From the NCBI RefSeq assembly GCF_001899205.1, contig NZ_MKVL01000010.1, positions 117,166 through 181,165 of the forward strand: a stretch of DNA of 64,000 bases, given 5' to 3'. Position 1 is the stretch's first letter. Each line of letters starts with the position of its first letter. Source of the DNA: Mesorhizobium sp. 65-26. GTDB taxonomy: Bacteria > Pseudomonadota > Alphaproteobacteria > Rhizobiales > Rhizobiaceae. Shown here in pieces: positions 1-16,492 of this stretch. The notes under the pieces are model-generated. The model did not search any database, had not been told where the DNA came from, and was given only the letters and a program-made list of their open reading frames with translations. The position numbers were made by a program, and so were the translations under genes.

Positions 1-908
1 ACGGCGATGCCGAGATTGACCTCTCGCGACAGCACCAGCGCGCCGCCGTCGAGGCGGGCGTTGACCTGCGGAAAGTCGCGCAGCGCTATGCAGGTGGCGC
101 GGGCGATGAAGGGCAGGTAGGTCAGCGACAGGCCATTGTCCTGCCTGAAGCGCTCCTTGCGCTCGGCGCGCACCCGCTCGACGGCCGTGAAATCGACTTC
201 GATCGCCTGGAAGACATGCGGGATGGTGCGCCAGTTCTCGGCCAGCCTCTCACCGGTCCGCCTGCGGATGGCATTCAGCGTCACCACCTCGCCGGTGGCG
301 GGCGCGGCGGAAACCGGCGCCGGCGCCTGCATGGCCGGCTCGGCGGCGGGCTCCGGCGCGCGTGAAATCCGTTCCGCCGGGGCCGCCGAGGCCAGGGCGG
401 CCCGTACGTCCTTTTCTCCGATCCTGCTGGTGCCCGAAGCGAGCGCGGCGCGCGCCAGCACGTCGGCGTCGAGACCGTTCTGGGCGATCAGCCGCCGCGC
501 CAGCGGCGTGATGCGGACACCGCCGGTCCTGGCCGGACCGAAGGCATCGAGCGGCGTCGACACTTCCTCGAACGGGGAGCGCGCCTCGGGGCGAGGGGCG
601 GGTTGCGGCGTTGGCGCCGTGCTGGCGGGCGCGGAGGCTACCGCGGCGGCCTTTGCGGCGGACAAACCCGCCGCGCCGCCGATGACGGCGACGACGGCGC
701 CGACCTTGGCCACTTCGCCGGACTTGACCCTGATCTCGCTGAGCGCGCCGGCGACGGTCGCCTGGACCTCCATCGTCACCTTGTCGGTCTCGATTTCGAA
801 GAGGTTGTCGCCTTCGTTGACCGCGTCGCCCTCCTGCTTGAACCAGGAGAGGATCCGGCCCTCGGCGACGGTCTCGCCGAGCTGCGGCATCAGGACGTCG
901 GCGCTCAT
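1..908 (-). CDS. Dihydrolipoamide acyltransferase (E2) of a 2-oxoacid/acetoin dehydrogenase complex, 3' end outside window
   Basis: Not in ORF track (runs off the edge). Read manually from ATG 908: MSADVLMPQLGETVAEGRILSWFKQEGDAV...FEIETDKVTMEV (lipoyl domain, lipoyl-Lys in ETDK), Ala/Pro linker, E3-binding motif (RITPLARRL). ATGA overlap with E1 beta stop. Confidence 0.93.
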   Translation of the reverse strand, partial: MSADVLMPQLGETVAEGRILSWFKQEGDAVNEGDNLFEIETDKVTMEVQATVAGALSEIRVKSGEVAKVGAVVAVIGGAAGLSAAKAAAVASAPASTAPTPQPAPRPEARSPFEEVSTPLDAFGPARTGGVRITPLARRLIAQNGLDADVLARAALASGTSRIGEKDVRAALASAAPAERISRAPEPAAEPAMQAPAPVSAAPATGEVVTLNAIRRRTGERLAENWRTIPHVFQAIEVDFTAVERVRAERKERFRQDNGLSLTYLPFIARATCIALRDFPQVNARLDGGALVLSREVNLGIA

Positions 909-1894
909 CTCTTCGACCCGTTCATGACCCGCGAGATCTTCTCGACGATGCGCGGCGCGTTCGGCAGCGCGAGATCCTCGAGGTGGTCGGCGGCCGGCAG
1001 CGGTATGTGCGGCGTGGTGATGCGCACGATCGGGCCGTCGAGGTCCCAGAACGCCTCGTCGGCGACGATGGAGGCGATCTCGGCGCCCCAGCCGCACAGG
1101 CGCGGATTCTCCTCGACGGTAAACAGCCGGCCGGTCTTCGCCACGGAAGCCAGGATGGTGGCCGTGTCGAGCGGCACCAGCGAGCGCACGTCGATGACCT
1201 CGCAGTCGATGCCGTGCTCCGCCGCCAGCGTCTCGGCGGCGGCCAGCGCGCGCGGAACCATCAGCGCCAGCGCCAGTATGGTGGCGTCCTTGCCCGGCCG
1301 CAGGATTTTCGCGGTGCCCAGGGTGTCGATGATCTCGCCGTCGGGAACCTCGCCCTTCACCGCGTAGAGCGATTTGTGCTCGTGGAAGATCACCGGATTG
1401 TCGTCGCGCACCGCCGCCGCCATTAGGCCGATGACATCGACCGGCGAGGAGGGGGCCACGACCTTGAGGCCGGGGATCATCATCGTCCAGTTCTCGATCG
1501 ACTGCGAATGCTGCGCGCCGAAGCGGGCGCCGCCGCCATTGCCGGTGCGCACCACCAGCGGGCAGCCGAGCTGGCCGTTGGTCATGTAGCGCAGCTTGGG
1601 GAATTCGTTGGCGATGTAGTCGAAGCAGACGGCGACGAAATCGGCGAACATGATCTCGGCGATCGGCCTCAGCCCCGTCATCGCCGCGCCCATGGCGGCG
1701 CCGAGGATGGCCTGTTCGGAGATCGGCGTGTCGCGCACCCGGCGCGGGCCGAATTTCTCGTAGAGACCGACGGTCGACTTGAACACGCCGCCGGCCTTGG
1801 CCACGTCCTCGCCCAGGAAGACGACGTTCTCGTCGCGCTCCATCTCCTGCGCGATGGCGCGGGCGACCGCGTCGCGATAGGTCAGTTCCGCCAT
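905..1894 (-). CDS. ThDP-dependent dehydrogenase E1 beta subunit (acetoin dehydrogenase AcoB/PdhB-like)
   Basis: MAELTYRDAVARAIAQEMERDENVVFLGEDV...RVRDTPISEQAILGAAMGAA...GAQHSQS; start trimmed to ATG 1894, overlapping E1 alpha stop. Confidence 0.95.
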   Translation of the reverse strand: MAELTYRDAVARAIAQEMERDENVVFLGEDVAKAGGVFKSTVGLYEKFGPRRVRDTPISEQAILGAAMGAAMTGLRPIAEIMFADFVAVCFDYIANEFPKLRYMTNGQLGCPLVVRTGNGGGARFGAQHSQSIENWTMMIPGLKVVAPSSPVDVIGLMAAAVRDDNPVIFHEHKSLYAVKGEVPDGEIIDTLGTAKILRPGKDATILALALMVPRALAAAETLAAEHGIDCEVIDVRSLVPLDTATILASVAKTGRLFTVEENPRLCGWGAEIASIVADEAFWDLDGPIVRITTPHIPLPAADHLEDLALPNAPRIVEKISRVMNGSKR

Positions 1895-2910
1895 GACCAT
1901 CCCCCGTCGGCGTAGACATCCGTGGTAAGCAATTCGGCCGGTGCCGGTGGCGAGGCCTTGCACAGTTCGGTGGCGGCCTCGACCTTGCGCTTGCTCTCGG
2001 CGTCGATGGCCGTGATCTCGGCCTCCGAGATGCCGAATTCCCTCAGCCGCTCGCGGTAGATCTTGACCGGGTCGCGCTCCAGCCATTTCTCCAGCTCGCC
2101 CTCGGGACGGTATTTCGCCGGATCGGCGCGCGAGTGGCCGGAATGCCGGTAGGTCATGCATTCGATGAGCGAGGGACCGCCGCCGTCGCGCGCTTTGACG
2201 AAGGCGGCCTGCGCGGTGCGGTAGACGACGTCGGCGTCGTTGCCGTCGACGACGATGCGCTCCAGCCCGTAGGCGGAGGCGCGGTCGGCGGCGGGATGCT
2301 CGACCGCCGTCACGTCGCCGATCGGCGTGTATTCCATGTAGAGGTTGTTCTCGCAGATGAAGACCACCGGCAGCTTCCAGATGGCGGCGAAGTTCAGCGC
2401 TTCGTGGAAGGCGCCGATGTTGGTGGTGCCGTCGCCGAAGAAGCAGACCGAGACGTCCTTCTGGCCGAGATATTGCGCCCGCCAGGCCGAGCCGCAGGCG
2501 ATCGGCAGGTGCGCGCCGATGATGGCGTAGGAGCCCATCACGCCGTGCTCCACCGAGGTCAGGTGCATCGAGCCGCCCTTGCCGCGCATGAGGCCGACGT
2601 CGCGCAGCATCAGTTCGCCCAGCACCTGCTCCATCGGCACGCCGCGCGCCAGAGTGTGGGCGTGGCCGCGATAGGTGCAGAACGACTTATCACCCGGCTG
2701 CATGGCCATGGCGACGCCGGCGGCGATCGCCTCCTGGCCGAGCGACAGGTGGCTGGTGCCCTTGATGAGGTTCTGGAAGAACAGATCGTTGGCGCGCTTC
2801 TCGCAGTCGCGGATCTCGACCTGGAGCCGGTAGAGCTCGAGCCGGGTTTCCGGGCCAATATCGTCGTTCGACAGGCCCGCCTTGCGGGACCCGGTGTGTT
2901 TTCCTGACAT
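1882..2910 (-). CDS. ThDP-dependent dehydrogenase E1 alpha subunit (acetoin dehydrogenase AcoA/PdhA-like)
   Basis: HLSLGQEA, YRGHAH, GKGGSMH, ThDP motif GDG...ENN, YRHSGHSRADPAKYR. C-terminal part of track ORF 1882..3915; start trimmed to ATG 2910. Confidence 0.95.
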   Translation of the reverse strand: MSGKHTGSRKAGLSNDDIGPETRLELYRLQVEIRDCEKRANDLFFQNLIKGTSHLSLGQEAIAAGVAMAMQPGDKSFCTYRGHAHTLARGVPMEQVLGELMLRDVGLMRGKGGSMHLTSVEHGVMGSYAIIGAHLPIACGSAWRAQYLGQKDVSVCFFGDGTTNIGAFHEALNFAAIWKLPVVFICENNLYMEYTPIGDVTAVEHPAADRASAYGLERIVVDGNDADVVYRTAQAAFVKARDGGGPSLIECMTYRHSGHSRADPAKYRPEGELEKWLERDPVKIYRERLREFGISEAEITAIDAESKRKVEAATELCKASPPAPAELLTTDVYADGGWSWRN

Positions 2911-2974
2911 GTTCTGGTTCCACCCTAGATGGGCAAACCATGCCAAAACTGTCCATGCCGGACATGGGTCATGA

Positions 2975-2989
2975 TTCTCATATTGAACA
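2975..2989. promoter_or_regulatory. Candidate operator, copy 1 (TTCTCA-TAT-TGAACA)
   Basis: Imperfect version of the palindrome at 3066-3080; lies 65 bp upstream of the E1 alpha start. Confidence 0.5.
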
Positions 2990-3065: not shown

Positions 3066-3080
3066 TTCTCATTTTGAGAA
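3066..3080. promoter_or_regulatory. Candidate operator, copy 2 (TTCTCA-TTT-TGAGAA, perfect 6-3-6 palindrome)
   Basis: AT-rich palindrome in the divergent intergenic region between the aco-like operon and the regulator. Confidence 0.6.
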
Positions 3081-5162: not shown

Positions 5163-5177
5163 CTCTCAAAATGATAA
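5163..5177. promoter_or_regulatory. Candidate operator, copy 3 (CTCTCA-AAA-TGATAA)
   Basis: 13/15 match to the reverse complement of 3066-3080; upstream of the ABC importer operon. Confidence 0.55.
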
Positions 5178-5357: not shown

Positions 5358-6512
5358 ATGAGCAACATCTCAAGACGCCTTGCCATGCTTCTGGTGGGCG
5401 CCGCCGGACTGGCCGCGCTCGCCGCGCCTGTCCTGGCGCAGGACGCCAAGTTCTACAACGGCGCGCCGCGGACCTATCTCTACAATCCCAACACCGATGT
5501 CTGCTTCAAGGACACCACGCAATACAAGAAGGAAGGTCCCTACACGATCGGCTTCTCCAACGCAGGCCTCGGCGACTCCTGGCGCGTCGTCATGCTGCAT
5601 TCGTTGGAGGCTTCGGCCGCCAAGCACAAGGACCAGATCAAGAAGCTGATCATCACCGATGCGGGCCATGACGACGCCAAGCAGGTGGCCGACATCCAGG
5701 ACCTCATCTCGCGCGGCGTCGATCTCCTGATCGTCAGCGCCAACACCCAGCAGGCGCTCGATCCGGCCGTGTCGCAGGCCATGGCCGCGGGCATCCCGGT
5801 GGTGATGGTCGACCGCCGTGTCGCCTCCGACAATTTCGTCACCTTCGTCACCGCCTCCGACGCCATGATGGGCCGCCTGTTCGCGCAGTGGATCGTCGAG
5901 AAACTGCACGGCAAGGGCAACGTCGTCATGCTGGCCGGGCAAGCCGGTTCGAGCCCGTCCGAGAACCGCGAGAAGCCGGCCCGCGAGGTGTTTGCGCAGT
6001 ATCCGGGCATCAAGGTGCTGGAGACGGTCTATTCCGACTGGTCGCCGGTCAAGGGCAAGCAGGTGATGCAGGCCATGATCGCCAAGTACGGCAAGCAGAT
6101 CGACGCCGTGTGGTCGGCGCACGGGCTGCAGACGCCGGGCTCGATAGAGGCTTTCATCGAGGCCGGATACAAGGATGGCGAGATCCCGCCGCACACCACC
6201 TCCGACGTCAACGGGCCGCTGCAGATGGCGATCCAGCACAAGGTGCCGATGCTCGAGGTCGGCTATCCGCCGGCGATGGGCGGCGTCTCGGTCGATGTCG
6301 CGCTGCAGGTGCTGGCCGGCGCGCCGGTGCCCTGCATCTACACGATCAACTCGCAGATCGCCGTCAGCGAGGGCGACAACACGCCTTCGATCGAAACGCC
6401 GCTGCGGCTGACCGACATGGTGGTGCCCAAGGGCGCGCCGGACATGCTGATCACCGGCGGCATGGGGCCGGACTACGACCCGAAGACCTTCAAGGTCGAC
6501 TTCCCGCAATAA
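5358..6512 (+). CDS. Sugar ABC transporter periplasmic binding protein (RbsB-like, CUT2)
   Basis: RBS GGAGG; signal peptide (..AAPVLA-QD); YTIGFSN, GVDLLIVS, IPVVMVDR motifs. Confidence 0.93.
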   Translation: MSNISRRLAMLLVGAAGLAALAAPVLAQDAKFYNGAPRTYLYNPNTDVCFKDTTQYKKEGPYTIGFSNAGLGDSWRVVMLHSLEASAAKHKDQIKKLIITDAGHDDAKQVADIQDLISRGVDLLIVSANTQQALDPAVSQAMAAGIPVVMVDRRVASDNFVTFVTASDAMMGRLFAQWIVEKLHGKGNVVMLAGQAGSSPSENREKPAREVFAQYPGIKVLETVYSDWSPVKGKQVMQAMIAKYGKQIDAVWSAHGLQTPGSIEAFIEAGYKDGEIPPHTTSDVNGPLQMAIQHKVPMLEVGYPPAMGGVSVDVALQVLAGAPVPCIYTINSQIAVSEGDNTPSIETPLRLTDMVVPKGAPDMLITGGMGPDYDPKTFKVDFPQ

Positions 6513-6578: not shown

Positions 6579-8099
6579 ATGCTTACCCTTTCAGGTATCT
6601 CGAAGAGCTTCATCGGCGTCAAAGCGCTGTCGGGCATCGACCTCGACGTACGCGCGGGCGAAATCCACGCGCTGGTCGGCGAGAACGGCGCCGGCAAATC
6701 GACGACGATCAAGATCGCGGCCGGCGTCTACCGGCCCGACGCCGGCCAGATCGTGTTCGAGGGCAAGCCGGTGCAGTGGACGAGGCCGGCCGAGGCGAAG
6801 AACGCCGGCATCCACGTCATCTACCAGGAGTTCGTGCTGTTCCCGCACCTGACGGTGGCCGAGAACATCTATCTCGGGCACGAGCGGCGCAACCGCTTCG
6901 GCTTCGTCGACCATGCGCGCACCCGCCGCGACGCGGCCGAACTGCTGCGCAAGCTCGGTGTCGAGATCGATCCGCGCATGCCGGTGTCGGAACTCACGGT
7001 GGCCGACCAGCAGATGGTGGAGATCTCCAAGGCGCTCGTCCACAAGGTGAAGCTTCTCATCCTCGACGAGCCGACGGCCGTCATCTCCGGCCGCGAGGCC
7101 GAGCTGCTGTTCGCCCGCCTGGCGGCGCTGAAGGCCGAGGGCGTGGCCATCCTCTATGTATCGCACCGGCTGGAGGAGATCTTCCAGATCGCCGATCGCG
7201 TCACCGTCTTCAAGGACGGCGCCCATGTCGCCACCAAGGCCATCGGCGAGGTGACGCGCGACAGGCTGATCTCGATGATGGTCGGGCGTGACCTGAAGGA
7301 CATCTTCCCGCCCAAGAAGCCGGCCGGCGCGCCGGGCAAGGTGGTGCTCAAGGCTCAGGATATTTCCGTCGCGGGCCGTGTCCGCAACGCCGGCATCGAG
7401 GCGAGGGCAGGCGAGATCACCGCGCTGGCGGGGCTGGTCGGCGCCGGCCGCACCGAGCTTGCCATGGGCATTTTCGGCGGCCTGCCGACGACATCCGGCG
7501 ACGTCTGGATCGATAGCGAGAAGGTCGAGGCGATGACGCCGGCAATCGCCATCCGCAAGGGCGTCGGCTTCGTGACCGAGGACCGCAAGGGCCAGGGACT
7601 GGCGATGCTGCTCGATGTCGCCGCCAACGTCACCGCCGCGAACCTGTCGGCGGTGACGCGCAACGGCCTCATCGACAGGCGTCGCGAGAACGAGATCGCG
7701 CGACAGGAGATCGAGAACTACAGGATCGTCTGCCGTGGCCCGGCCACGGCCGTCGCCACCATGTCGGGGGGCAACCAGCAGAAGGTGATCGTGGCGCGCT
7801 GGGCGCGCACCAGCCGCAAGGTGCTGATCCTGGACGAGCCGACGCGCGGCGTCGATGTCGGCGCCAAGACGGAGATCTACCGCATCATGCGCGGCCTGGC
7901 GGAGCAGGGCATCGCGGTCCTGATGATCAGCTCGGAGCTGCCAGAGGTGGTCGGCATGGCTGACCGCGTCGTGGTGATGCGCGAAGGCGTCGTCAGTGGC
8001 GAGCTCGCCGGGGCCGACATCAGCGAGGAGGCGATCATGAGCCTTGCCACCCAGCATCCGGGCGCCCAGGCGCCAGCCATGGAGGGCCTGCCGCAATGA
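6579..8099 (+). CDS. Sugar ABC transporter ATP-binding protein (two ABC domains, RbsA-like)
   Basis: Walker A GENGAGKS, ILDEPT twice, MSGGNQQK signature. Confidence 0.96.
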   Translation: MLTLSGISKSFIGVKALSGIDLDVRAGEIHALVGENGAGKSTTIKIAAGVYRPDAGQIVFEGKPVQWTRPAEAKNAGIHVIYQEFVLFPHLTVAENIYLGHERRNRFGFVDHARTRRDAAELLRKLGVEIDPRMPVSELTVADQQMVEISKALVHKVKLLILDEPTAVISGREAELLFARLAALKAEGVAILYVSHRLEEIFQIADRVTVFKDGAHVATKAIGEVTRDRLISMMVGRDLKDIFPPKKPAGAPGKVVLKAQDISVAGRVRNAGIEARAGEITALAGLVGAGRTELAMGIFGGLPTTSGDVWIDSEKVEAMTPAIAIRKGVGFVTEDRKGQGLAMLLDVAANVTAANLSAVTRNGLIDRRRENEIARQEIENYRIVCRGPATAVATMSGGNQQKVIVARWARTSRKVLILDEPTRGVDVGAKTEIYRIMRGLAEQGIAVLMISSELPEVVGMADRVVVMREGVVSGELAGADISEEAIMSLATQHPGAQAPAMEGLPQ

Positions 8100-9058
8100 G
8101 CGCGATCGCTCCCGCCCAGCGGCCGACGAGGCTGCGCAACAACCAGGGCATCCTCGTCGTCGCGGCGCTGCTGGTGGCGCTGCTGATCTTCGGCGCTTTC
8201 ATCTCCGACCGCTTCCGCACCCTCTCCAACATCCTCAACATACTGGAGCAGTCGACGGGCCTCGCCCTGGTCAGCCTCGGCCAGACGCTGACCATCCTGA
8301 CCGGCGGCATCGACCTGTCCGTCGGCTCGTTGATCAGCCTGCTGTCGACGCTGACTTCCGGCCTGATCGCCGGCAAGGCGTCGATGGTGCTGCCGGTCGC
8401 GATCGGCGTGCTGCTGCTCGGCCTGCTGGTCGGCATCGCCAACGGGCTGCTGATCATCTGGCTGCGCGTCCATCCGCTCATCGTCACGCTGGGCATGGGG
8501 GCTGTGCTGCAGGGCATCGTGCTGCTCTATTCGCTGGGCCCGGCGGGTGCGGTGCCGCCAGGCTTCAACTACCTCGCCTACGGCCGGCTGCTCGGCGTGC
8601 CGGTCGGCGCCATCGTCATCGTCGTGCTGTTCCTGCTGGTCGGGCTCTTCCTGCGCTACGCCAGGCTCGGCCGCTACATCTACGCGGTCGGCGACGACGA
8701 GGCCGGCGCGCGGCTGATGGGCCTGCCACGCGCGCGGGTGCTGCTTACCGTCTACGGCTTCTCCGGCTTTTGCTGCGGGCTGGCCGCCATCTACCTCACC
8801 AGCCGATTCAGCGTCGGCCAGCCCTATACGGGGCTCAACTACACGCTCGCCTCGATCACGCCCGTCTTGGTCGGCGGCACGCTGCTCAGCGGCGGCAAGG
8901 GCGGTGTGCTGGGCACGCTGCTCGGCGTCTACCTCATCTCGCTGATCAACAACGTCCTCAATTTCATGGACGTGTCGACGCACTACCAGCTCATCGCCCA
9001 GGGCCTGATCGTCATCGCGGCGGTGTCGATCTATGTCGAGAAGAAGAAGAGGGTCTGA
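8096..9058 (+). CDS. Sugar ABC transporter permease (RbsC-like)
   Basis: Hydrophobic; TGGIDLSVGS, GRYIYAVG, LVGGTLLSGGKG. Confidence 0.95.
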   Translation: MSAIAPAQRPTRLRNNQGILVVAALLVALLIFGAFISDRFRTLSNILNILEQSTGLALVSLGQTLTILTGGIDLSVGSLISLLSTLTSGLIAGKASMVLPVAIGVLLLGLLVGIANGLLIIWLRVHPLIVTLGMGAVLQGIVLLYSLGPAGAVPPGFNYLAYGRLLGVPVGAIVIVVLFLLVGLFLRYARLGRYIYAVGDDEAGARLMGLPRARVLLTVYGFSGFCCGLAAIYLTSRFSVGQPYTGLNYTLASITPVLVGGTLLSGGKGGVLGTLLGVYLISLINNVLNFMDVSTHYQLIAQGLIVIAAVSIYVEKKKRV

Positions 9059-10032
9059 TGGTCGACGTCTCGCAAGGCACGGCCCCGGAAATCGGCGCCC
9101 CCACCGCTTCCGCCAGGAGCCGCCTGTCCGCTTACGCCCTGCCGATCTTCCTCGTCGCGCTGATCGCCGTCTCCGGCATCGTGTCGCCGGCGTTCTTGTC
9201 CGGCTCCAACATCTCCAACATGCTGCTGCAGGTGGCGCCGCTCGGCATCGTGGTGATCGGCCAGGCCTTCGTCATCATCCTGCGCGGCCTCGACCTGTCG
9301 GTGGCCTCGGTCATGGCGACGGCGGCGGTGATCGCCACCGGCTTCTCCGGCCAGAACTCCGACGTGCTGCCGATCGTGCTGATCGCCGTCGGCATCGGCG
9401 TCGCCACCGGCCTCGTCAACGGGCTGCTGGTCACCAAGCGCAGCGTCTCGCCCTTCCTGGCGACGCTCGCCACCATGATTGTGCTGCAGGGCTTCCGCTT
9501 CGCCTATACGCAAGGCGCGCCGTCGGGCAACGTGCCGCCGTTGTTCCGTCAGATCGGCTCGGCCACCTGGCACGGGCTGCCCTACAACATGATGCTGATG
9601 CTGGTGCTCGCCGTCGTCTTCGGCGTGCTGCTGTCTAGGTCGCGTTTCGGCCGCGAAGTCTACATCACCGGCGGCAATCCGACGACGGCGCGGCTGCTGG
9701 GCATCAATGCCGACCGCGTGACGGTAATCGGCTACATCATCTCGGGCGCGCTGGCGGCCGTCGCCGGCCTGGTGCTGAGCGGCTATGTCGGCATCGTCGA
9801 CAACTGGGTCGGACGCGGCTTCGAGCTGGACTCGATCGTGGCGGCGGTGATGGGCGGCATCTCGCTGTCGGGCGGCCGCGGAGGCATTGCCGGCGGCCTT
9901 TTCGGCGCGGCCATTCTGGTGGTCGTCTTCAACGCGGTGCTGCTGTTCGGGCTGCCTGTCCAGCTCCAGATCATCATCAAGGGCATCGTCATCGTGCTGG
10001 CCGCAGCTTTCTACGTGCGCCGGCGCGTGTGA
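9058..10032 (+). CDS. Second sugar ABC transporter permease (RbsC-like)
   Basis: TGATG overlap with previous stop; RGLDLSVAS, FGREVYITGGN, VMGGISLSGGRG. C-terminal part of track ORF 8044..10032. Confidence 0.94.
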   Translation: MVDVSQGTAPEIGAPTASARSRLSAYALPIFLVALIAVSGIVSPAFLSGSNISNMLLQVAPLGIVVIGQAFVIILRGLDLSVASVMATAAVIATGFSGQNSDVLPIVLIAVGIGVATGLVNGLLVTKRSVSPFLATLATMIVLQGFRFAYTQGAPSGNVPPLFRQIGSATWHGLPYNMMLMLVLAVVFGVLLSRSRFGREVYITGGNPTTARLLGINADRVTVIGYIISGALAAVAGLVLSGYVGIVDNWVGRGFELDSIVAAVMGGISLSGGRGGIAGGLFGAAILVVVFNAVLLFGLPVQLQIIIKGIVIVLAAAFYVRRRV

Positions 10033-10082
10033 CGCGCCGCGCCGGCCGGCTGGCCGGGCGGAAGAATTCGAGGAGGAAACAC

Positions 10083-10850
10083 ATGGGCAGACTTCAGGAC
10101 AAGATCGCCGTCGTCACCGGCGGCTCGCGGGGCATCGGCGGCGCTACCGTGCGCCGCTTCGCCGAGGAGGGCGCCAAGGTCGCGATCTTCGACGTGCTCG
10201 CCGAGGATGGCGAGGCGCTGGCGGCCGAGCTTTCGCGCGACGGCGGCGACGTGATCTTCGTCAAGGTCGACATCACCGACGAGAAACAGGTCGAGGCGGC
10301 GGTCTCGCGGGTGACCGGAAAATGGGGCCGGCTGGACATACTGGTCAACAACGCCGCCATCACCGGCGCCAACAAGTTCGCGCATGAGGTGACGGTGGAG
10401 GAGTGGGACCGCGTCTTCGACGTCAACGTCAAGGGCACGTTCCTGTGCACCAAATACGCGGTGCGGCCGATGATGGCGCAGAAATCCGGCTCCATCGTCA
10501 ATTTCTCGTCGATCTATGGACTGATCGGCAATGACGACATCCCGCCCTATCACGCCACGAAGGGCGCCACGCTGATGATGAGCAAGACCGACGCCATCTG
10601 CTACGCGCCCTACGGCATAAGGGTGAACGCCGTGCATCCCGGCTCGACCATGACCGAGATTTTCATGAAGTGCGCCGACACCTATCCGAAGGGCAAGCAG
10701 GCCTATCTCGACATGATGAAGGAAAAGCACCCGCTGCGCCTCGGCGAGCCGGTGGATGTCGCGAACTGCGTTCTTTTCCTCGCGTCGGAGGAGGCGCGCT
10801 TCGTCACCGGCGCCAGCCTCGTCGTCGACGGCGGCTACACCACGCAGTGA
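10083..10850 (+). CDS. Short-chain dehydrogenase/reductase (SDR)
   Basis: RBS GAGGAGG; TGGSRGIG, NNAA, YHATK (YxxxK), VDGGY. Confidence 0.95.
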   Translation: MGRLQDKIAVVTGGSRGIGGATVRRFAEEGAKVAIFDVLAEDGEALAAELSRDGGDVIFVKVDITDEKQVEAAVSRVTGKWGRLDILVNNAAITGANKFAHEVTVEEWDRVFDVNVKGTFLCTKYAVRPMMAQKSGSIVNFSSIYGLIGNDDIPPYHATKGATLMMSKTDAICYAPYGIRVNAVHPGSTMTEIFMKCADTYPKGKQAYLDMMKEKHPLRLGEPVDVANCVLFLASEEARFVTGASLVVDGGYTTQ

Positions 10851-10968: not shown

Positions 10969-12036
10969 ATGAAGGCCGTCAGATTCCACGGAGCCAGGGA
11001 CATCAGGGTCGAGGACGTCGCCGAGCCGACGGCCAGGCTCGGCGCGCATGACGTGCTGATCAAGCCGATCACCACGGGCATATGCGGCACGGACCTGCAC
11101 GAATACATCGCCGGGCCGATCGTCACGCCGTCGACGCCGCATGTCTATACCGGCGCGACCAACCCGCAGATACTCGGCCATGAGTTCAGCGCGGTGGTGG
11201 CCGACACCGGCTCGGCGGTGACCAATGTGAAGGCTGGCGACCGCGTCTCCATCCAGCCGCTGATTTCGCCGCGCGACGACTATTTCGGCCGCCGCGGCCT
11301 CTACCATCTCAGCCCGCAAATGGCTTGCGTCGGGTTGAGCTGGGCCTGGGGCGGCATGGGGGAGCTCGCCATCGTCAACGACTACAACGTCGTGCCGGTG
11401 CCGAAAGGGGTGAGCGACGTGCAGGCGGCGATGATCGAGCCGGCTGCGGTCGCCATCTACGGCACCGACCGGGGCGGCGTGCAGTCGGGCTCGACGGTGC
11501 TGGTCTCGGGCGCCGGCCCGATCGGCGCGCTGACCCTGCTGGCGGCGAAGGCGGCGGGCGCGGCGCGCATCTTCGTCTCGGAGCCGAATCCCAACCGCCT
11601 CGCCAAGGCGAAGGAACTGATCCCGGACTGCATCGCCATCGACCCGACCAGGGACAATCTCGACGAGATCATCGCCGACCATACCGAGGAGGGGGTAGGC
11701 GTGGATGTCGCGCTGGAATGCGTCGGGCTGGAGGCCAGCCTCAACGCCTGCGCCAGGGCGGTGCGCCGCCAGGGCAAGGTTGTGCAGACCGGTCTGCATA
11801 TGAAGCCGGCCAGCATCGACGCCATGCTGTGGGCGCTCAAGGACATCACGGTCGAGGCGACCTGGTGCTACCCGGTGCAGATCTGGCCGCGTGTCATTCG
11901 CATGGTGGAGGCCGGCATCCTGCCGCTGGAGAAGGTGGTGACCGCCAACATCAGCGCCGAGGACGTGGTCGAGAAAGGCTTCGAGGCGCTGCTCGACAAG
12001 GCGGGAAAGCACCTGAAGATCCTGGTGAACATCTGA
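10969..12036 (+). CDS. Zn-dependent medium-chain dehydrogenase, 2,3-butanediol dehydrogenase-like
   Basis: GICGTDLHEY, LGHEF, GAGPIG, HLKILV; start trimmed to ATG 10969. Confidence 0.9.
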   Translation: MKAVRFHGARDIRVEDVAEPTARLGAHDVLIKPITTGICGTDLHEYIAGPIVTPSTPHVYTGATNPQILGHEFSAVVADTGSAVTNVKAGDRVSIQPLISPRDDYFGRRGLYHLSPQMACVGLSWAWGGMGELAIVNDYNVVPVPKGVSDVQAAMIEPAAVAIYGTDRGGVQSGSTVLVSGAGPIGALTLLAAKAAGAARIFVSEPNPNRLAKAKELIPDCIAIDPTRDNLDEIIADHTEEGVGVDVALECVGLEASLNACARAVRRQGKVVQTGLHMKPASIDAMLWALKDITVEATWCYPVQIWPRVIRMVEAGILPLEKVVTANISAEDVVEKGFEALLDKAGKHLKILVNI

Positions 12037-12099
12037 ATGGGCGGGGGCGCGCCGCGCCCCTTCCGCCGCACCACCGGACATCAACATCGGAGGAGAGAC

Positions 12100-12879
12100 A
12101 TGGCAGGCAATGCATTCGCGAACTATTCGCTGGAGGGCCGCACCGCGCTGGTCACCGGCGCGGCCGGCGGCATCGGCGGCGCCATCACCGAGCGGCTGGC
12201 AAGCCTTGGCGCGAGGGTGGTTCTGGCCGACGTCACCGACCGCGTGGTCGAGGTCGCCAAGGGCTGGGCGGACAAGGGCTACAAGACCAAGGGCGTCAAG
12301 GTCGATGTCACCAACAGCGCCGAGGTCGAGCGGGCGGCGGCAAGCCTCAACGAGGAGTTCGGCGCGGTCGACATACTGGTCGCCAATGCCGGCATTTCCT
12401 ATGAGAGCGACACGGCCGGGCATTCCGACGAGGACTGGCGCCGCTGCATGGCGATCAACCTCGACGGCATCTTCTACTGCGTGCGCTCCTTCGGCAAACG
12501 CATGGTGGAGCGCAAGCGCGGCAGCATCGTCTGCATTTCCTCGATCGCCGGCGTCAAGGCGGTGCGGCCGGAGCTGCACGCCGGCTATGACGTCTCCAAG
12601 GCCGGCGTGGCGCATCTGTGCCGGGTGGTCGGCGTCGAATGGGCGCCGCATAATGTCCGCGTCAATGCCGTCGGGCCGGGCTACACCGAAACCGAGATGC
12701 TGAAGAAGGTGGGCGCCGCGCAGCCCGCGGTCATGGCCACCTGGATCGGCGACACGCCGATGAAGCGCCTCTTGCAGCCGGCCGAGATCGCGGCCTCGGT
12801 GGCATTCCTGGCCTCCGACGCCGCCAGCGGCATCACAGGCCATGTGTTGATGACCGACGCCGGCTATTCGGTGGCGTGA
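12100..12879 (+). CDS. Short-chain dehydrogenase/reductase (SDR)
   Basis: RBS GGAGG; TGAAGGIG, ANAG, YDVSK, RVNAVGPG. Confidence 0.94.
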   Translation: MAGNAFANYSLEGRTALVTGAAGGIGGAITERLASLGARVVLADVTDRVVEVAKGWADKGYKTKGVKVDVTNSAEVERAAASLNEEFGAVDILVANAGISYESDTAGHSDEDWRRCMAINLDGIFYCVRSFGKRMVERKRGSIVCISSIAGVKAVRPELHAGYDVSKAGVAHLCRVVGVEWAPHNVRVNAVGPGYTETEMLKKVGAAQPAVMATWIGDTPMKRLLQPAEIAASVAFLASDAASGITGHVLMTDAGYSVA

Positions 12880-13916
12880 ACATGGCGGCGGAACGGGACA
12901 TGACCGCGACATCCGATGGGCCCGTCAGGATCGCCATGGTCGGCCTCGGCTGGTGGGGCCGCAAGATGGTGGCGGTGCTCGGCGGCGCCAAGGCGCATAT
13001 CGAGGTGGCGCGGGCGGTCGAGCCGGCGCCGGGCGCGGAAGAATTCTGCGCCGCCAACGGGCTTGCGCTGAGCACCGACTATGCCGAGGCGCTCGCCGAT
13101 CCAGGCGTCGAGGCGGTGATCCTGGCGACGCCGCATTCGCTGCACGAGGAGCAGATCGAGCGCGCCGTGGCTGCGGGCAAGCATGTATTCTGCGAAAAGC
13201 CGCTGGCCATGACCAGGACTGGGGCGGAGAGGGCCGTGGCGCTGTGCCGCGATGCCGGGCTGGTGCTCGGCATGGGCCACGAGCGGCGTTTCGAGCCGCC
13301 GATCGCCATGATCCTCGAGGCCGCCGCCGATGGTCGCCTCGGCCGCGTGCTGCAGGTCGAGGCCAATTTCAGCCACGACAAGTTCCTCGGGCTCGATCCG
13401 TCGAACTGGCGGCTCAACGCCAGCCAGGCGCCGGCCGCCGGCATGACGGCGACCGGCATCCACCTCACCGACCTGTCGACGCGGCTGCTCGGCCCGGCGC
13501 GCGACGTGCGCGTCGCCTGCGAGAACCTCGCCTCGGAAATTCCCCAGGGCGATACGCTGAGCGCGCATATCCGCTTCCATGGCGGCGGCACAGCCTACGT
13601 GTCGGCGACGCTGGCGACGCCCTTCGTGTCGCGCTTCGCCGTGTTCGGCACCAAGGGCTGGATCGAGGTGCGCGACAAGGCGCATGTCGAGGCGCCAGCC
13701 GGCTGGGTGGTGACCAGCGCATGGACTGGCACGCCGATCGAGGTGCGGGAGGTGGCACCCGCCGAGCCGGTTCGCGACAACCTCGTCGCCTTCGCCGAGG
13801 CGGTGCGCGGCAGGCGCGCCTACCCGATCACCGGCGAGGAGATGATCAACAACATCGCCATCCTCGAGAGCATCATCCGATCGGCCGGCACCGGCATGGT
13901 CGAGCTCGTGGCCTGA
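12876..13916 (+). CDS. Gfo/Idh/MocA family oxidoreductase
   Basis: VGLGWWG, ILATPHSLH, FCEKPLA, GIHLTD; exact start (12876/12882/12900) uncertain. Confidence 0.92.
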   Translation: MNMAAERDMTATSDGPVRIAMVGLGWWGRKMVAVLGGAKAHIEVARAVEPAPGAEEFCAANGLALSTDYAEALADPGVEAVILATPHSLHEEQIERAVAAGKHVFCEKPLAMTRTGAERAVALCRDAGLVLGMGHERRFEPPIAMILEAAADGRLGRVLQVEANFSHDKFLGLDPSNWRLNASQAPAAGMTATGIHLTDLSTRLLGPARDVRVACENLASEIPQGDTLSAHIRFHGGGTAYVSATLATPFVSRFAVFGTKGWIEVRDKAHVEAPAGWVVTSAWTGTPIEVREVAPAEPVRDNLVAFAEAVRGRRAYPITGEEMINNIAILESIIRSAGTGMVELVA

Positions 13917-13940
13917 ACGACAGCAAGCGGAGAGACGAAC

Positions 13941-14921
13941 ATGCGAGCGCTGGTCTTTGAATCCCCCGACAAGCCTGTAGTCATCGACAAGCCGATGCCC
14001 GGCATCGCTCCCGGCGAGGTGTTGGTCAGGACCCGAACCGTCGGCATCTGCCATTCCGACTACGAGCTGCTGGCGGGCCGCTACATCATCCCGATTTCCT
14101 ATCCGGTGACGCCCGGCCATGAATGGTGCGGCGAGATCATCGAGGTCGGGCGCGCGGTGAAGGGCTGGCGCGTCGGCGACAGGGTGGTGGGCGAATGCGT
14201 GGTGCGCACGCCCGAGCGGCTGCATCATTTCGGCTTCTCTATGGACGGCGCCGACCAGGAATATTTCGCCGTCAATCCCGACTGGCTGCACAAGCTGCCC
14301 GACGGCATCGACGACAGGCGCGCCTCGCTGATCGAGCCGTTCACCTGCGGTTTCTACGCGGTGCTGCGCTCGGGCGGCACCAATGCCAGCGAGACGGTGG
14401 TGGTGTCGGGCGGCGGCACCATCGGCCTCGTCTCGGCCGCGGCCGCCATCGGCATGGGCGCGCGCGTCATCGTCGTTGATCCGCTCGCCTCGCGCCGCGA
14501 AGTGGCAAGCAGGCTCGGCGCCGACGCCGTGGTCGATGCGACAAGGGATCCGGTCGCCGAAGTCATGGAACTGACCGGCGGCAAGGGCGCCGATCTCGTG
14601 GTCGAAGCCTCCGGCCACGACGCCTCGCTTGCCAACACCTTCGAATTTGCCCGCGAGGAGGGGCGCGTCTCGATGGTCGGCATCAACATCGGCCGCAAGA
14701 TCGCGGTCGAGCTCGGCAAGATCCAGATCCGCAACCTGGCTGTGCGCGGCTGCATCGGCTCGCCCGGCGTGTGGCCGGCGGCCATCCGCTTCCTGGAACG
14801 CACCGGCATCGACCTTTCGCCCATCCAGACGCACAGCTTCGCGCTGGAGGACGCGGTCGCGGCCTTCGATCTCGGCAAGGATGCCGGCAAATGCATCAAG
14901 GTCACGCTGACCGCCAACTGA
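13941..14921 (+). CDS. Zn-dependent alcohol/polyol dehydrogenase (MDR)
   Basis: GICHSD, PGHEW, SGGGTIG, VVEASG; RBS GGAGA. Confidence 0.92.
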   Translation: MRALVFESPDKPVVIDKPMPGIAPGEVLVRTRTVGICHSDYELLAGRYIIPISYPVTPGHEWCGEIIEVGRAVKGWRVGDRVVGECVVRTPERLHHFGFSMDGADQEYFAVNPDWLHKLPDGIDDRRASLIEPFTCGFYAVLRSGGTNASETVVVSGGGTIGLVSAAAAIGMGARVIVVDPLASRREVASRLGADAVVDATRDPVAEVMELTGGKGADLVVEASGHDASLANTFEFAREEGRVSMVGINIGRKIAVELGKIQIRNLAVRGCIGSPGVWPAAIRFLERTGIDLSPIQTHSFALEDAVAAFDLGKDAGKCIKVTLTAN

Positions 14922-14933
14922 AGGGAGCAAGCA

Positions 14934-15233
14934 ATGTCCAGGCAATTGACCGTGGTTGCGCATCTGGTCGCGAGGCCGGCCAAGATCGAGGAGACGCGAA
15001 AGTTCCTGCTGTCGCTGATCGAGCCGACGCGGGCCGAGCCCGGTTGCATCGACTATGACCTGCACCAGGATGACGAGCGGCCGGCCGAGTTCACCTTCTA
15101 CGAGAACTGGAAGGACCGCGCGGCCTGGGACGCGCATATGCTGACGCCCAACCTGCACGAGTTCGCGCGGCGCGCCGACGAGTTGTTCGCCGTGCCGCCG
15201 CACATCCGGCTGATGACGATGATCAGCGCGTAG
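14934..15233 (+). CDS. Antibiotic-biosynthesis-monooxygenase (ABM)/putative quinol monooxygenase
   Basis: TRAEPGCIDYDLHQD...FTFYENWKDRAAWDAHM; RBS GGGAG. Confidence 0.88.
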   Translation: MSRQLTVVAHLVARPAKIEETRKFLLSLIEPTRAEPGCIDYDLHQDDERPAEFTFYENWKDRAAWDAHMLTPNLHEFARRADELFAVPPHIRLMTMISA

Positions 15234-15357
15234 GCATCCCGTGGCATCCGGCGGCATTCTCATTCTGGATATCTTTCGCGCCCGCGCCAGCGGCACCCGC
15301 GACTAGACTTTCACCATCCGGTGCTGGAGGGCGCCGGCGGCGATCAGGGAGGCGACG

Positions 15358-16077
15358 ATGGGCAGGCTCGACGGCAAGGTGGCACTGGTCAGCGGTGCCG
15401 CGCAAGGCATAGGGCGCGCGGTGGCCGAGCTGTTCGCCGAGGAGGGCGCCGTCGTCCATGCCGGCGACGTCAAGCCTGTCGCGCCGGCCCGCAATATCGA
15501 GCCGCTGACACTCGACGTCACCCGGCCCGAGGACTGGGCGAAGGCCGTCGATACGATCCTCGCCCGCCATGGCAGGCTCGACATCCTCGTCAACAATGCC
15601 GGCATCGTGCGCGCCTACGAGCAGATGCTGGAGACCGACCTGGAGGCGTGGAACGCGGTCGTCGCGGTCAACCTCACCGGTAGTTTCCTCGGCATCAAGG
15701 CGGTGCTGCCGGCCATGCGCGCGGCGGGCAGGGGCTCAATCGTCAACTTCTCGTCGATCTGGGGCAGCGTCGGCGTCGCCGGCGCGGCCGCCTACAACGC
15801 CGCCAAGGGCGGCGTGCGCAACATGACCAAGAACGCGGCCGTCACCTATGCCGGCGAGAACATCCGGGTCAATTCCGTGCATCCCGGATTGATCCGCACG
15901 CCGCTGGTGGTGGCGCAGTCGGACGAGATGAATGCCGGCATCATCGCCAAGACGTCGATGGGCCGTATGGGCACGCCTCTGGAAGTGGCCAGGGGCTGCC
16001 TGTTCCTGGCGAGCGACGAGGCTTCCTTCATCACCGGGGCCGAGCTGGTGATCGATGGCGGCTATCTCGCGCAATGA
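15358..16077 (+). CDS. Short-chain dehydrogenase/reductase (cyclic/secondary alcohol dehydrogenase-like)
   Basis: RBS GGAGG; SGAAQGIG, NNAG, YNAAK, RVNSVHPG, IDGGY. Confidence 0.94.
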   Translation: MGRLDGKVALVSGAAQGIGRAVAELFAEEGAVVHAGDVKPVAPARNIEPLTLDVTRPEDWAKAVDTILARHGRLDILVNNAGIVRAYEQMLETDLEAWNAVVAVNLTGSFLGIKAVLPAMRAAGRGSIVNFSSIWGSVGVAGAAAYNAAKGGVRNMTKNAAVTYAGENIRVNSVHPGLIRTPLVVAQSDEMNAGIIAKTSMGRMGTPLEVARGCLFLASDEASFITGAELVIDGGYLAQ

Positions 16078-16096
16078 ACGGGACCGGAGGACGGAT

Positions 16097-16492
16097 ATGA
16101 ACGTGACCAATGCGCGGATCGAGCCGACTATCGAGCATGGCGGCACCTGCCGCACCTATTTCATGGTGCCGAAGGAGGCGATGCGCGCCGAGACCGAGGG
16201 CTCCTACCTTGAATATGTCTCGGAGTTCGAGATAGCGGCCGGTTCTCATCTGGAGCCGCACCGCCACGACACGCACGAGTTCTACTACGTGCTCAAGGGC
16301 CGCGCGCTGATGCAGATCGGCGCCGAGAAGCGCGAGGTGGAGCCGGGCGACCTGATCCACATCCCGCCCAACGCCGTTCACAGCATCGCGCCGCTGGGCG
16401 AGGCGCCGGTGCGCGCGCTTGCCTTCGCGGCAAGCTTCCTGCCGCCGGGCGGCGCGGGCACCGAGGCCGAGAAGGCAGACCTGCCGGCGTGA
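16097..16492 (+). CDS. Cupin domain protein
   Basis: RBS GGAGGA; HRHDTHEFYYVLKG and PGDLIHIPPNAVH cupin motifs. Confidence 0.9.
   Translation: MNVTNARIEPTIEHGGTCRTYFMVPKEAMRAETEGSYLEYVSEFEIAAGSHLEPHRHDTHEFYYVLKGRALMQIGAEKREVEPGDLIHIPPNAVHSIAPLGEAPVRALAFAASFLPPGGAGTEAEKADLPA

Follow-up and report, generated by a model that had tools for sequence, protein, structure and literature searches.

To our knowledge, ring cleavage by a complex resembling pyruvate dehydrogenase (PDH) has been implicated genetically in only two denitrifying Betaproteobacteria, and the hydroxyquinol pathways that we know of start from phenols by way of oxygenases, not from a polyol imported by an ATP-binding cassette (ABC) transporter. 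In the resorcinol pathway, BtdLS, of which BtdS belongs to the DoxX family, converts hydroxyhydroquinone to hydroxybenzoquinone, and BqdLMS then cleaves this ring, as proposed without O2 (PMC10084136). Here we describe a locus from Mesorhizobium sp. 65-26 in which genes for such a thiamine diphosphate (ThDP)-dependent E1α/E1β/E2 module diverge from genes for a sugar-type ABC importer and a series of dehydrogenases. The locus lies at the left end of a 64,000-nucleotide stretch (contig NZ_MKVL01000010.1, positions 117,166 to 181,165) which we refer to as the window. Sequence comparisons lead us to propose, with about an even chance of being right, that a polyol taken up by the cell, probably a cyclitol, gives rise to hydroxyquinol or hydroxybenzoquinone, and that this intermediate is cleaved by Bqd-like ThDP/lipoamide chemistry aided by a Peptidase_M24 homologue with a cysteine ligand, M24(Cys), all within a single regulon.

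The hydroxybenzoquinone dehydrogenases BqdLMS of anaerobic resorcinol degradation (Aromatoleum/Azoarcus anaerobius) and 3,5-dihydroxybenzoate degradation (Thauera aromatica AR-1) consist, like the module in the window, of a PDH-like ThDP-dependent E1 and a lipoyl E2 (plus an E3). The BqdLMS/Thauera cluster also shares with the window operon an accessory M24 protein, a CobW protein and an NAD_binding_2 dehydrogenase; Thauera encodes an aldehyde dehydrogenase in addition. In contrast to these systems, the E1 of the window is split into α and β subunits, the window contains no E3, glyoxalase, molybdo-hydroxylase or DoxX/Btd dehydrogenase, the host is an aerobic rhizobium, and it is a sugar-type importer together with polyol dehydrogenases, instead of a phenol hydroxylase, that supplies the module. 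The second related system is the aerobic hydroxyquinol branch of the β-ketoadipate pathway, the two enzymes of which end importer operons orthologous to that of the window. The window itself encodes a hydroxyquinol-type dioxygenase 10 kb downstream of the island, with an operator-like site in the promoter region. Unlike in the known branch, this dioxygenase is accompanied by an FAH-family hydrolase and not by a maleylacetate reductase, and the main island encodes ThDP/lipoamide cleavage. A third system provides an independent precedent: in the iolT2-rhcM2D2 operon of Corynebacterium glutamicum (IhtR regulon) the genes for an inositol-type transporter, a maleylacetate reductase and a hydroxyquinol-type dioxygenase are transcribed together, and 1,2,4-trihydroxybenzene releases the repressor (PMC7764795). 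This operon shares the link between polyol uptake and hydroxyquinol cleavage with window-type operons, but its transporter is of the major facilitator superfamily instead of the ABC type, it comes from a different phylum and it has no ThDP module. In the literature that we searched, neither a pathway from a polyol or cyclitol to hydroxyquinol nor an M24(Cys)/CobW pair is described; iolT2-rhcM2D2 was the only related hint. The idea of ThDP-dependent ring fission already exists for two denitrifiers; the polyol-fed version would be new.

Open frames alone are unreliable in a window of ~67% G+C, and the real coding frames were told apart by third-position GC profiles. Genes were classed by Pfam and NCBIfam scans (Table 1). 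All gene classes that an earlier, sequence-only reading had listed for the island are present by these scans: E1α/E1β/E2, a sugar-type importer, three short-chain dehydrogenases/reductases (SDR1 to SDR3), two zinc-dependent medium-chain dehydrogenases/reductases (MDR1 and MDR2), a Gfo/Idh/MocA oxidoreductase (Gfo), an ABM protein and a cupin. One gene of 583 codons was missing from that list and looks like a regulator. No island enzyme reaches an NCBIfam equivalog cut-off, so that none is a recognized orthologue of a named enzyme. The description of these genes as one island is borne out by gene content but not by co-linearity, since the operon of E1α, E1β and E2 lies on the minus strand and runs away from the plus-strand genes. 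Pfam detects no kinase or aldolase domain among the window genes from 1 to 22168. The proposal of a phosphorylation-independent route also stands with respect to the 10 kb to the left, where such a gene would have spoken against it and where none was found. This flank was read on L001, a 1.04-Mb public contig that carries the exact E1α protein (public loci are numbered with the prefix L throughout).

The importer consists of a Peripla_BP_4 substrate-binding protein (SBP), a two-domain ATPase and BPD_transp_2 permeases, as expected of the CUT2 family; none of these proteins reaches a substrate-specific NCBIfam equivalog cut-off. Homologues of the SBP with 67-97% identity occur in ~55 loci, the importer/dehydrogenase block recurs in more than 50 alphaproteobacterial loci at an SBP identity of at least 65%, and the operon is found in Rhizobium, Mesorhizobium, Bradyrhizobium, Aureimonas, Ruegeria and Paraburkholderia. 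The recurring gene order is SBP, ATPase, two permeases, (SDR), SDR1, MDR1, SDR2, (YciI), Gfo, MDR2 and (PRISE-like enone reductase), with a regulator and a β-hydroxyacid-dehydrogenase-like gene divergent from the SBP operon. MDR1 is the most constant partner of the importer: it is present in 41 of the 44 SBP loci of at least 14 kb, where Gfo, MDR2 and SDR1 (66-93% identical in SBP-linked operons) each occur in 29. Centering the comparison on MDR2 gives 34 loci of at least 14 kb, mostly from Aestuariivirga and other Hyphomicrobiales and with a different CUT2 importer. All 34 contain MDR1, and most contain Gfo (33), the PRISE-like reductase (29), the regulator (28), E1α (28), M24 (23) and CobW (21). 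The ABM protein is found in Mesorhizobium/Kaistia-type clusters. Rhizobium/Paraburkholderia-type clusters encode a YciI protein, which in Rhizobium-type operons lies between SDR2 and Gfo. ABM may replace YciI, since the ABM-carrying clusters lack it. Synteny of SDR3 and the cupin is kept in Mesorhizobium and Kaistia.

What the importer block may produce is suggested by the genes at the end of orthologous operons, which a 20-kb flank covers in two records. On plasmid pPR13E01 of Rhizobium indicum, the last genes of the co-directional operon encode a PRISE-like reductase, an intradiol dioxygenase and a maleylacetate reductase. A shorter operon on PPGU16_p2 of Paraburkholderia largidicola encodes the SBP (70% identical), the ABC genes, an MDR1 homologue (56%), an NAD(P) oxidoreductase that is 42% identical to the β-hydroxyacid-dehydrogenase-like protein of the window-type operon, YciI, an intradiol dioxygenase, a maleylacetate reductase and an SDR. 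The Paraburkholderia dioxygenase matches the hydroxyquinol 1,2-dioxygenase 1TMX with E = 2.5e-95, compared with 7e-36 for the best chlorocatechol or catechol enzyme. Both dioxygenase and maleylacetate reductase are thus encoded in these orthologous operons (L155 and L156). This ending implies that the product of the block is hydroxyquinol or a very close analogue. A minimal version of the operon was also observed: in L133 (as annotated) and other Bradyrhizobium loci, a LysR gene diverges from genes for MDR1 (61-64%), the SBP (~71%) and the ABC components only. In this version the downstream steps must be encoded elsewhere in the genome.

The second block of the locus is the E1/E2 operon. As read leftward on L001, E1α and E1β are followed by the full E2 (440 residues), a Peptidase_M24 gene that overlaps the E2 gene, a CobW GTPase and an NAD_binding_2 protein, which is β-hydroxyacid-dehydrogenase-like and closest to L-threonate and tartronate-semialdehyde enzymes. 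The M24 and CobW partners were invisible to the sequence-only reading because their genes lie left of the window. E1α has an intact ThDP motif, GDG-X(24-27)-NN, from residue 159, and the full-length E2 contains the lipoyl lysine Lys43 in ETDKV and the catalytic DHRAFDG at residue 410. E1αβ and E2 thus have the domains and motifs of a complex of the 2-oxoacid/acetoin dehydrogenase type. The proteins do not fit the housekeeping pyruvate dehydrogenase: E1α stays below the PDH equivalog cut-off (TIGR03182, 323 bits versus 394), and E1β aligns with positions 139-462 of NF008854 only, without the lipoyl domain that the housekeeping PDH β subunit of Alphaproteobacteria has at its N terminus. In a tree of concatenated E1αβ, the window proteins fall inside a well-supported clade of 44 sequences, 35 of which have an adjoining M24 gene. 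The sister clade comprises mostly E1αβ-aldehyde dehydrogenase-E2 clusters without M24.

Comparison with two aromatic-degradation clusters suggests what this module does. The Thauera aromatica cluster encodes a DbhLS-like, AthL-type molybdo-hydroxylase (1002 and 288 residues), two cupins, an NAD_binding_2 protein, M24 and a TRAP transporter. These are followed by genes for another molybdoenzyme, E3, an aldehyde dehydrogenase, CobW, a fused E1αβ (735 residues), a glyoxalase, E2 and a LysR protein. We take this gene set to be the published 3,5-dihydroxybenzoate/hydroxyhydroquinone cluster (dbh/btd/bqd), and the fused-E1 module to be the Bqd complex that cleaves hydroxybenzoquinone. Its M24 protein is 77% identical to the window-type protein, CobW 41% and NAD_binding_2 30%. 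The second cluster, L021, comes from a metagenome-assembled genome (MAG) of the Xanthobacteraceae. One co-directional array encodes a resorcylate-hydroxylase-type (DbhLS-like) molybdoenzyme, cupins, a Liv-type ABC transporter, E1α, E1β, E2, M24, CobW and an aldehyde dehydrogenase. The hydroxylase and cupins of L021 are 79% and 59% identical to those of Thauera, and its E1α (84%), E1β (92%), E2 (60%), M24 (93%) and CobW (63%) resemble those of the window module. Taken together, these comparisons suggest that the window E1 module is the split-E1 counterpart of the Bqd ring-fission module. The cupin of the island does not contribute to this argument: it matches the Thauera and L021 cupins only locally, with ~28-30% identity over 44-59 residues, which is no evidence of orthology.

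In other genomes the two blocks are joined in different ways. A Ruegeria array encodes an aldo-keto reductase, a glyoxalase, M24, NAD_binding_2, an aldehyde dehydrogenase, a fused E1 (731 residues), another glyoxalase and E2. The fused E1 is 66%, the glyoxalase next to it 67% and E2 44% identical to the Thauera proteins. This array lies on the same strand and directly upstream of an SBP gene whose product is 84% identical to that of the window, and the dehydrogenase block is next. In L140 a fused-type E1, CobW and M24 diverge from the SBP, and in L097 MDR2 is followed by M24 (91% identical). The same upstream block therefore occurs with a fused Bqd-type E1, with a split E1αβ, or with dioxygenase and maleylacetate reductase, the pattern expected of alternative cleavages of one intermediate. 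Clusters L087 and L089 contain E1α, E1β, aldehyde dehydrogenase, E2, M24, (E3), DoxX, (NAD_binding_2), an Old Yellow Enzyme-type reductase (OYE) and CobW. The OYE of the window is 62-64% identical to the OYEs of these two clusters, and several E1 operons have a homologue of its DAO protein (45-54%) as a neighbor. To the right, the functional unit probably continues through DAO to OYE and ends at ~19163. Aldehyde dehydrogenase is absent from the window and present in L021, L087, L089 and L098.

A common operator also links the blocks. The palindrome TTCTCA-N3-TGAGAA has four matches in the window at up to two mismatches, compared with 0.88 expected; one in 100 shuffled sequences reached four. 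All four sites are in divergent or upstream promoter regions, namely those of the E1 operon, the ABC operon and the YciI/FAH-dioxygenase unit. Operator positions are kept in eight related loci, and the first three are conserved in Mesorhizobium species. The Kaistia-like loci L138, L139 and L148 keep the site upstream of the SBP, and L139 and L148 have an extra site after ABM and before the SDR3 homologue. On this basis, we propose that the candidate regulator controls the E1 and ABC units through these predicted operators, and probably the SDR3-cupin and YciI/FAH-dioxygenase units as well. Scans for terminators and promoters gave no signal above the shuffled expectation. The candidate regulator consists of ~200 N-terminal residues without a family match and a cytoplasmic CUT1-type SBP fold at residues 224-510, of which the best relatives in the PDB are the sugar/polyol-binding proteins 5IAI (7.7e-27) and 4RYA ('sorbitol'). 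Homologues with 67-71% identity are present in 28 of the 34 MDR2-centered loci, most of which also contain E1. More broadly, most genomes with the pathway encode regulator homologues of 48-55% or 67-71% identity; Paraburkholderia and Bradyrhizobium have helix-turn-helix or LysR regulators instead. The conserved operator, together with the adjacency of the blocks in many genomes and with three non-orthologous E1 modules, bears out the earlier suggestion that the importer/dehydrogenase and ThDP-E1/E2 genes belong together.

The M24 protein (L001, 13309-15810 region) aligns over its full length with the DddP structures 4S00 and 4B28, and its C-terminal domain aligns with the prolidase 1PV9. The canonical M24 ligand set Asp-Asp-His-Glu-Glu is altered in that the second Asp is replaced by Cys (C290). 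The resulting ligands D279, C290, H356, E388 and E403 do not vary among 123 relatives, some of which are only 49% identical. The family is large: 7,999 of 8,000 scored candidates match at E up to 1e-20, giving at least 7,999 relatives, and the best 120 (76-95% identical) come from Alpha-, Beta- and Gammaproteobacteria. Some members, such as that in L088, have no E1 nearby. The neighboring CobW protein contains a P-loop, a CLCC motif and a His-rich tract, which are typical of COG0523 metallochaperones. Assignment of M24 as a DMSP (dimethylsulfoniopropionate) lyase was rejected, as its score against NF043017 is 115.7 bits with a cut-off of 600 and the context is not sulfur-related; the same assignment for the cupin (weak PF16867 match) was rejected on the same grounds of context. 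We also rejected a role of M24 as the dihydrophloroglucinol cyclohydrolase of the anaerobic phloroglucinol pathway, because the real enzyme belongs to the 'cyclase' family (PMC10470551). We speculate that M24 is a non-peptidase hydrolase or lyase that acts on a ring or a ring-opened diketone.

From these observations we can formulate a possible pathway. The substrate would be a sugar-like polyol, most likely carbocyclic, such as an inositol isomer or a deoxy-inositol. Judging from family membership, it would enter through the CUT2 ABC system, and MDR1 would act first by oxidizing a secondary alcohol. SDR1 and SDR2, Gfo, MDR2, SDR3, the β-hydroxyacid-dehydrogenase-like enzyme and OYE, with ABM (YciI in relatives), may then oxidize, dehydrate and re-reduce the ring up to aromatization, although the individual steps are guesses. 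The expected end point, by analogy to the orthologous operons, is hydroxyquinol (1,2,4-benzenetriol) or 2-hydroxy-1,4-benzoquinone. The formation of hydroxyquinol (C6H6O3) from a C6 polyol requires only dehydrations and balanced redox steps, which fits a carbocyclic substrate and an enzyme set rich in dehydrogenases and enone reductases without kinase or aldolase. An inositol would have to lose three waters; a deoxy-inositol would have to undergo one oxidation and two dehydrations. YciI and ABM folds are both dimeric α+β barrels, and the YCII-family protein TftG catalyzes an elimination on chlorinated hydroxyquinol. By analogy to TftG, YciI, or ABM where YciI is absent, may assist the water eliminations. 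Among the substrates that the sequence-only reading had considered, a cyclitol is the best fit.

In Mesorhizobium, the divergent E1α-E1β-E2-M24-CobW-(β-hydroxyacid dehydrogenase) operon would take the place of the dioxygenase and maleylacetate reductase of the relatives. The ThDP chemistry of E1 would cleave a C-C bond adjacent to a carbonyl, either in the quinone/triketone itself or in a methyl-diketone that hydrolysis releases from it. The acyl group would be passed through lipoyl-E2 to coenzyme A (CoA), a shared housekeeping E3 would reoxidize the lipoamide, and acetyl-CoA and a C4 dicarboxylate would be the expected products. According to the abstract of Darley et al. 2007, hydroxybenzoquinone is reportedly degraded to acetate and malate in cell extracts. 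We consider two orders of events. E1 may attack the 1,2-dicarbonyl tautomer, with E2 forming 3-oxo-hexenedioyl-CoA (order a). Alternatively, M24 may hydrolyze the vinylogous β-diketone to a methyl α-diketone, which an acetoin-type E1 would then convert to acetyl-CoA and a C4 diacid or semialdehyde (order b). The semialdehyde would be handled by an aldehyde dehydrogenase and the β-hydroxyacid dehydrogenase. Order (b) would explain why the window E1αβ is 77-86% identical to that of M24-less clusters. CobW may serve as the dedicated metallochaperone of M24.

Additional candidates for the dehydration steps appear in other loci. Three loci that are unrelated to one another, L155 (16868-18602, Paraburkholderia), L007 and L128 (the latter two by tblastn), encode a homologue of type II 3-dehydroquinate dehydratase next to the pathway genes; this protein is a candidate keto-cyclitol dehydratase. 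L047 encodes a xylose-isomerase-like TIM barrel, which together with the dehydroquinase homologue fits dehydration of a keto-cyclitol.

Several observations weigh against the proposal of a cyclitol pathway with ThDP-dependent ring cleavage. The structures nearest to the SBP bind furanoses or fructose, at only ~E = 1e-30, and the sensor of the regulator resembles proteins that bind acyclic polyols; an acyclic sugar or alditol is therefore a possible alternative substrate. The window contains no recognizable dehydratase of the IolE or dehydroquinase type, so that aromatization would have to rely on ABM, the cupin or spontaneous elimination. No dedicated E3 is encoded in the window cluster or the 10 kb to its left; homologous clusters encode one after CobW (L047 and, by matching size and position, L011), as does L087. 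E1α and E1β of the window share only 34% and 38% identity with the Thauera fused protein, and the window E1αβ is as close as 77-86% to E1αβ from many M24-less clusters (E1αβ-aldehyde dehydrogenase-E2 with an SDR), which could be ordinary acetoin-type enzymes. Since the window also encodes a hydroxyquinol-type dioxygenase, cleavage by ThDP chemistry may be used only under some conditions or for a different step. The function of Bqd itself is reportedly a proposal from genetics and cell extracts (Darley et al. 2007). Finally, four sequencing runs flagged 'RNA?' have flat depth and long contigs over both strands, which is DNA-like and uninformative with regard to co-induction.

The first alternative is that an open-chain polyol or deoxy-alditol is oxidized to a (methyl) ketol and split directly into an acyl-CoA and an aldehyde by the acetoin-dehydrogenase-like complex, with no aromatic or quinonoid intermediate. 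This is close to what the sequence-only reading had proposed. Of that idea, the phosphorylation-independent route, the linkage of the two blocks and the cyclitol option survive, but ketol cleavage is probably not the end of the pathway, given that orthologous operons end in hydroxyquinol enzymes or in the Thauera-type module. MDR1 is butanediol-dehydrogenase-like and MDR2 sorbitol-dehydrogenase-like; the sensor fold and the similarity of the β-hydroxyacid dehydrogenase to L-threonate and tartronate-semialdehyde enzymes also suit an open-chain substrate, and close E1αβ relatives often come with an aldehyde dehydrogenase, as ketol cleavage predicts. On the other hand, the Rhizobium and Paraburkholderia importer operons lack E1 and have hydroxyquinol 1,2-dioxygenase and maleylacetate reductase at their ends, the E1/M24 module is embedded in polyphenol-hydroxylase clusters, and direct ketol cleavage leaves the enone reductases (OYE, PRISE-like) and YciI unexplained. 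We therefore regard this alternative as unlikely.

A second alternative is that two independent systems adjoin in Mesorhizobium: E1/E2/M24/CobW for hydroxyquinol or hydroxybenzoquinone derived from resorcinol-type phenols, and the ABC/dehydrogenase block for an unrelated sugar. This would account for the observation that E1 or M24 lies within 10 kb of the SBP in only 8 of the 44 SBP-centered loci, and that E1/M24 modules also occur with aromatic-acid transporters (Liv-type or TRAP). It would leave unexplained why both operons share a conserved operator and why three non-orthologous E1 modules adjoin the same importer block. Moreover, importer operons without E1 carry hydroxyquinol dioxygenase and maleylacetate reductase, so that the importer block feeds hydroxyquinol cleavage either way. 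Two unrelated systems thus seem rather improbable.

An ordinary 2,3-butanediol/acetoin cluster (bdh with acoABC) is very improbable: the best solved relative of MDR1 is an (R,R)-butanediol dehydrogenase, PGAP names the Paraburkholderia MDR1 homologue '2,3-butanediol dehydrogenase' and the E1αβ/E2 architecture is that of AcoABC, but such a cluster offers no role for a four-gene sugar importer, six further dehydrogenases, M24(Cys)/CobW and OYE, and in Paraburkholderia the MDR1 homologue resides in a hydroxyquinol dioxygenase operon without E1. The likeness to AcoABCL with butanediol dehydrogenase extends to the heterotetrameric E1αβ, the lipoyl-E2, a butanediol-dehydrogenase-like MDR encoded next to E1α, and the cleavage chemistry of ketols or diketones. 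The differences are that the cluster encodes no AcoR (the σ54 activator), AcoX or AcoL, that M24(Cys)/CobW are obligatory, and that the cluster is linked to a sugar importer and hydroxyquinol enzymes.

The locus also differs from known inositol pathways. CUT2 importers serve inositol uptake in Caulobacter and rhizobia, and a CUT2 importer and a Gfo/Idh/MocA dehydrogenase are features that the locus shares with the iol pathway and with the IolG/IolM/IolN/IolO system of Thermotoga. The MDRs of the window are distantly IolM-like (E ~1e-43 to 1e-47, below the cut-off). With the IolG equivalog TIGR04380, Gfo reaches 101.7 bits, well short of the required 355; its relatives in the PDB include an aldose-aldose oxidoreductase, a 1,5-anhydrofructose reductase and a scyllo-inositol dehydrogenase. 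Pfam and NCBIfam detect no homologues of IolE, IolD, IolB, IolC or IolJ on the island. In contrast to the iol pathway, the route appears to lead to an aromatic triol instead of a phosphorylated keto-deoxy acid. For the proposed chemistry, IolD offers a precedent in principle in that it uses ThDP to break a C-C bond of a cyclic dione. The canonical iol, erythritol and rhamnose-type pathways were rejected since no equivalog cut-off is reached. An AI-2 (autoinducer-2)/Lsr-like system, with ABM as LsrG and two permeases, was rejected as well: the SBP does not match LsrB, LsrK and LsrF are absent, and permease and ATPase match ribose/arabinose models better than Lsr.

Table 1. Genes and predicted operator sites of the island and the second cluster (positions in the window)
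Feature	Positions	Strand	Assignment and remarks
E2 dihydrolipoyl acyltransferase, 5' part	3-908	minus	Biotin_lipoyl, 2-oxoacid_dh; runs off left window edge
E1β, heterotetrameric ThDP-dependent dehydrogenase	905-1894	minus	Transket_pyr, Transketolase_C
E1α, ThDP-binding subunit	1882-2910	minus	E1_dh, E = 1.6e-70
Operator copies 1 and 2	2975-2989, 3066-3080		between E1α and regulator gene
Putative regulator, 583 residues	3382-5133	plus	SBP_bac_1/SBP_bac_8
Operator copy 3	5163-5177		upstream of ABC operon
SBP, CUT2 (ribose-type), signal peptide	5358-6512	plus	Peripla_BP_4, E = 8e-53
ABC ATPase, double domain	6579-8099	plus	two ABC_tran domains
Two permeases	8096-9058, 9055-10032	plus	BPD_transp_2; start/stop codons overlap
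SDR1	10029-10850	plus	adh_short_C2
MDR1, Zn-dependent, (R,R)-butanediol/sorbitol-dehydrogenase-like	~10969-12036	plus	PDB 6IE0, E = 1.9e-62
SDR2	12037-12879	plus	adh_short_C2
Gfo/Idh/MocA oxidoreductase	12876-13916	plus	Pfam
MDR2, Zn-dependent, sorbitol-dehydrogenase-like	13941-14921	plus	Pfam, PDB comparison
ABM-domain protein	14934-15233	plus	ABM, E = 6.5e-19
SDR3	15358-16077	plus	Pfam; sub-operon with cupin
Cupin	16055-16492	plus	Pfam; sub-operon with SDR3
FAD oxidoreductase, DAO/LhgO-like	16641-17828	plus	Pfam; true start probably further downstream
OYE-family flavin enone reductase	17898-19163	plus	Pfam; true start probably further downstream
matB and matA	19205-22168	minus	between island and second cluster
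GntR	23035-23907		second cluster
Gfo2 and YciI	within second cluster, 23952-28682	minus	Pfam
Operator-like site 4, TTCTCATTCCGGGAA	25318-25332		divergent YciI/FAH promoter region
FAH-family hydrolase	within second cluster	plus	Pfam
Hydroxyquinol-type intradiol dioxygenase	26401-27255	plus	Pfam; PDB 1TMX
TRZ/ATZ-like amidohydrolase	within second cluster, 23952-28682	plus	

The second cluster contains the hydroxyquinol-type dioxygenase mentioned above. The best match of this protein in the PDB is the hydroxyquinol 1,2-dioxygenase 1TMX (1.5e-62), compared with ~1e-35 for catechol dioxygenases. The unit at 23952-27255 is probably part of the same regulon as the island. The scanned genes of the first 33 kb of the window (1-33 kb) include no maleylacetate reductase; the FAH protein may stand in for this enzyme. 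The matB/matA genes between island and second cluster could point to a ring-fission product that yields malonate.

Three further observations concern the surroundings of the E1 genes. Just past the E1 operon on L001 (16836-21029, opposite strand) lies a second CUT2 sugar ABC system, with an SBP, an ATPase, one permease and its own SDR; it is unrelated to the window importer and is kept in M. metallidurans and Mesorhizobium sp. YC-39 (SDR 88-89% identical). In L026 and ~45 similar loci from Pseudolabrys/Xanthobacteraceae MAGs, sister-clade E1αβ proteins, 77-84% identical to those of the window, are encoded in SDR-EamA-E1α-E1β-aldehyde dehydrogenase-E2-D-2-hydroxyacid dehydrogenase clusters that lack M24 and may be acetoin-type enzymes. 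In L002 (a contig of ENA ERZ778026, another sample), E1α and E1β are 100% identical and the ABC block is kept, with ExbD, MotA/ExbB and RuvABC genes in place of E2 and M24. We regard this arrangement as the outcome of a strain-level rearrangement or of chimeric assembly, and L002 was left out of the evidence.

If the proposed pathway is correct, a carbohydrate-like compound would be degraded through an aromatic intermediate, which reverses the usual logic and would be a new biochemical pattern. A more far-reaching version is that this is a distinct strategy, with deliberate aromatization of a sugar-like or cyclitol polyol to hydroxyquinol by dehydrogenases, enone reductases and eliminases of the YciI/ABM type, O2-free ThDP/lipoamide-dependent ring opening in many Hyphomicrobiales, in Ruegeria and in relatives, and a CobW-matured Cys-M24 as obligatory C-C hydrolase or lyase for hydroxybenzoquinone or the diketone formed on ring opening; we put this forward tentatively, as a doubtful but possible extension. 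The D-C-H-E-E ligand set of M24 sets out a new metalloenzyme family, with a genomic context from which function can be assigned. A widespread orphan importer operon gains a predicted product, hydroxyquinol, and candidate substrates, the cyclitols, which are abundant in legumes, leaves and algae. The more far-reaching version, if true, would also explain why the clusters for anaerobic resorcinol and resorcylate degradation contain genes for M24, CobW, an aldehyde dehydrogenase and a β-hydroxyacid dehydrogenase, by giving these proteins a function. O2-independent ring cleavage with split or fused E1 may be far more widespread than the two denitrifiers suggest, extending to soil and marine Alphaproteobacteria, and the chance that these clusters encode new enzymology is substantial.

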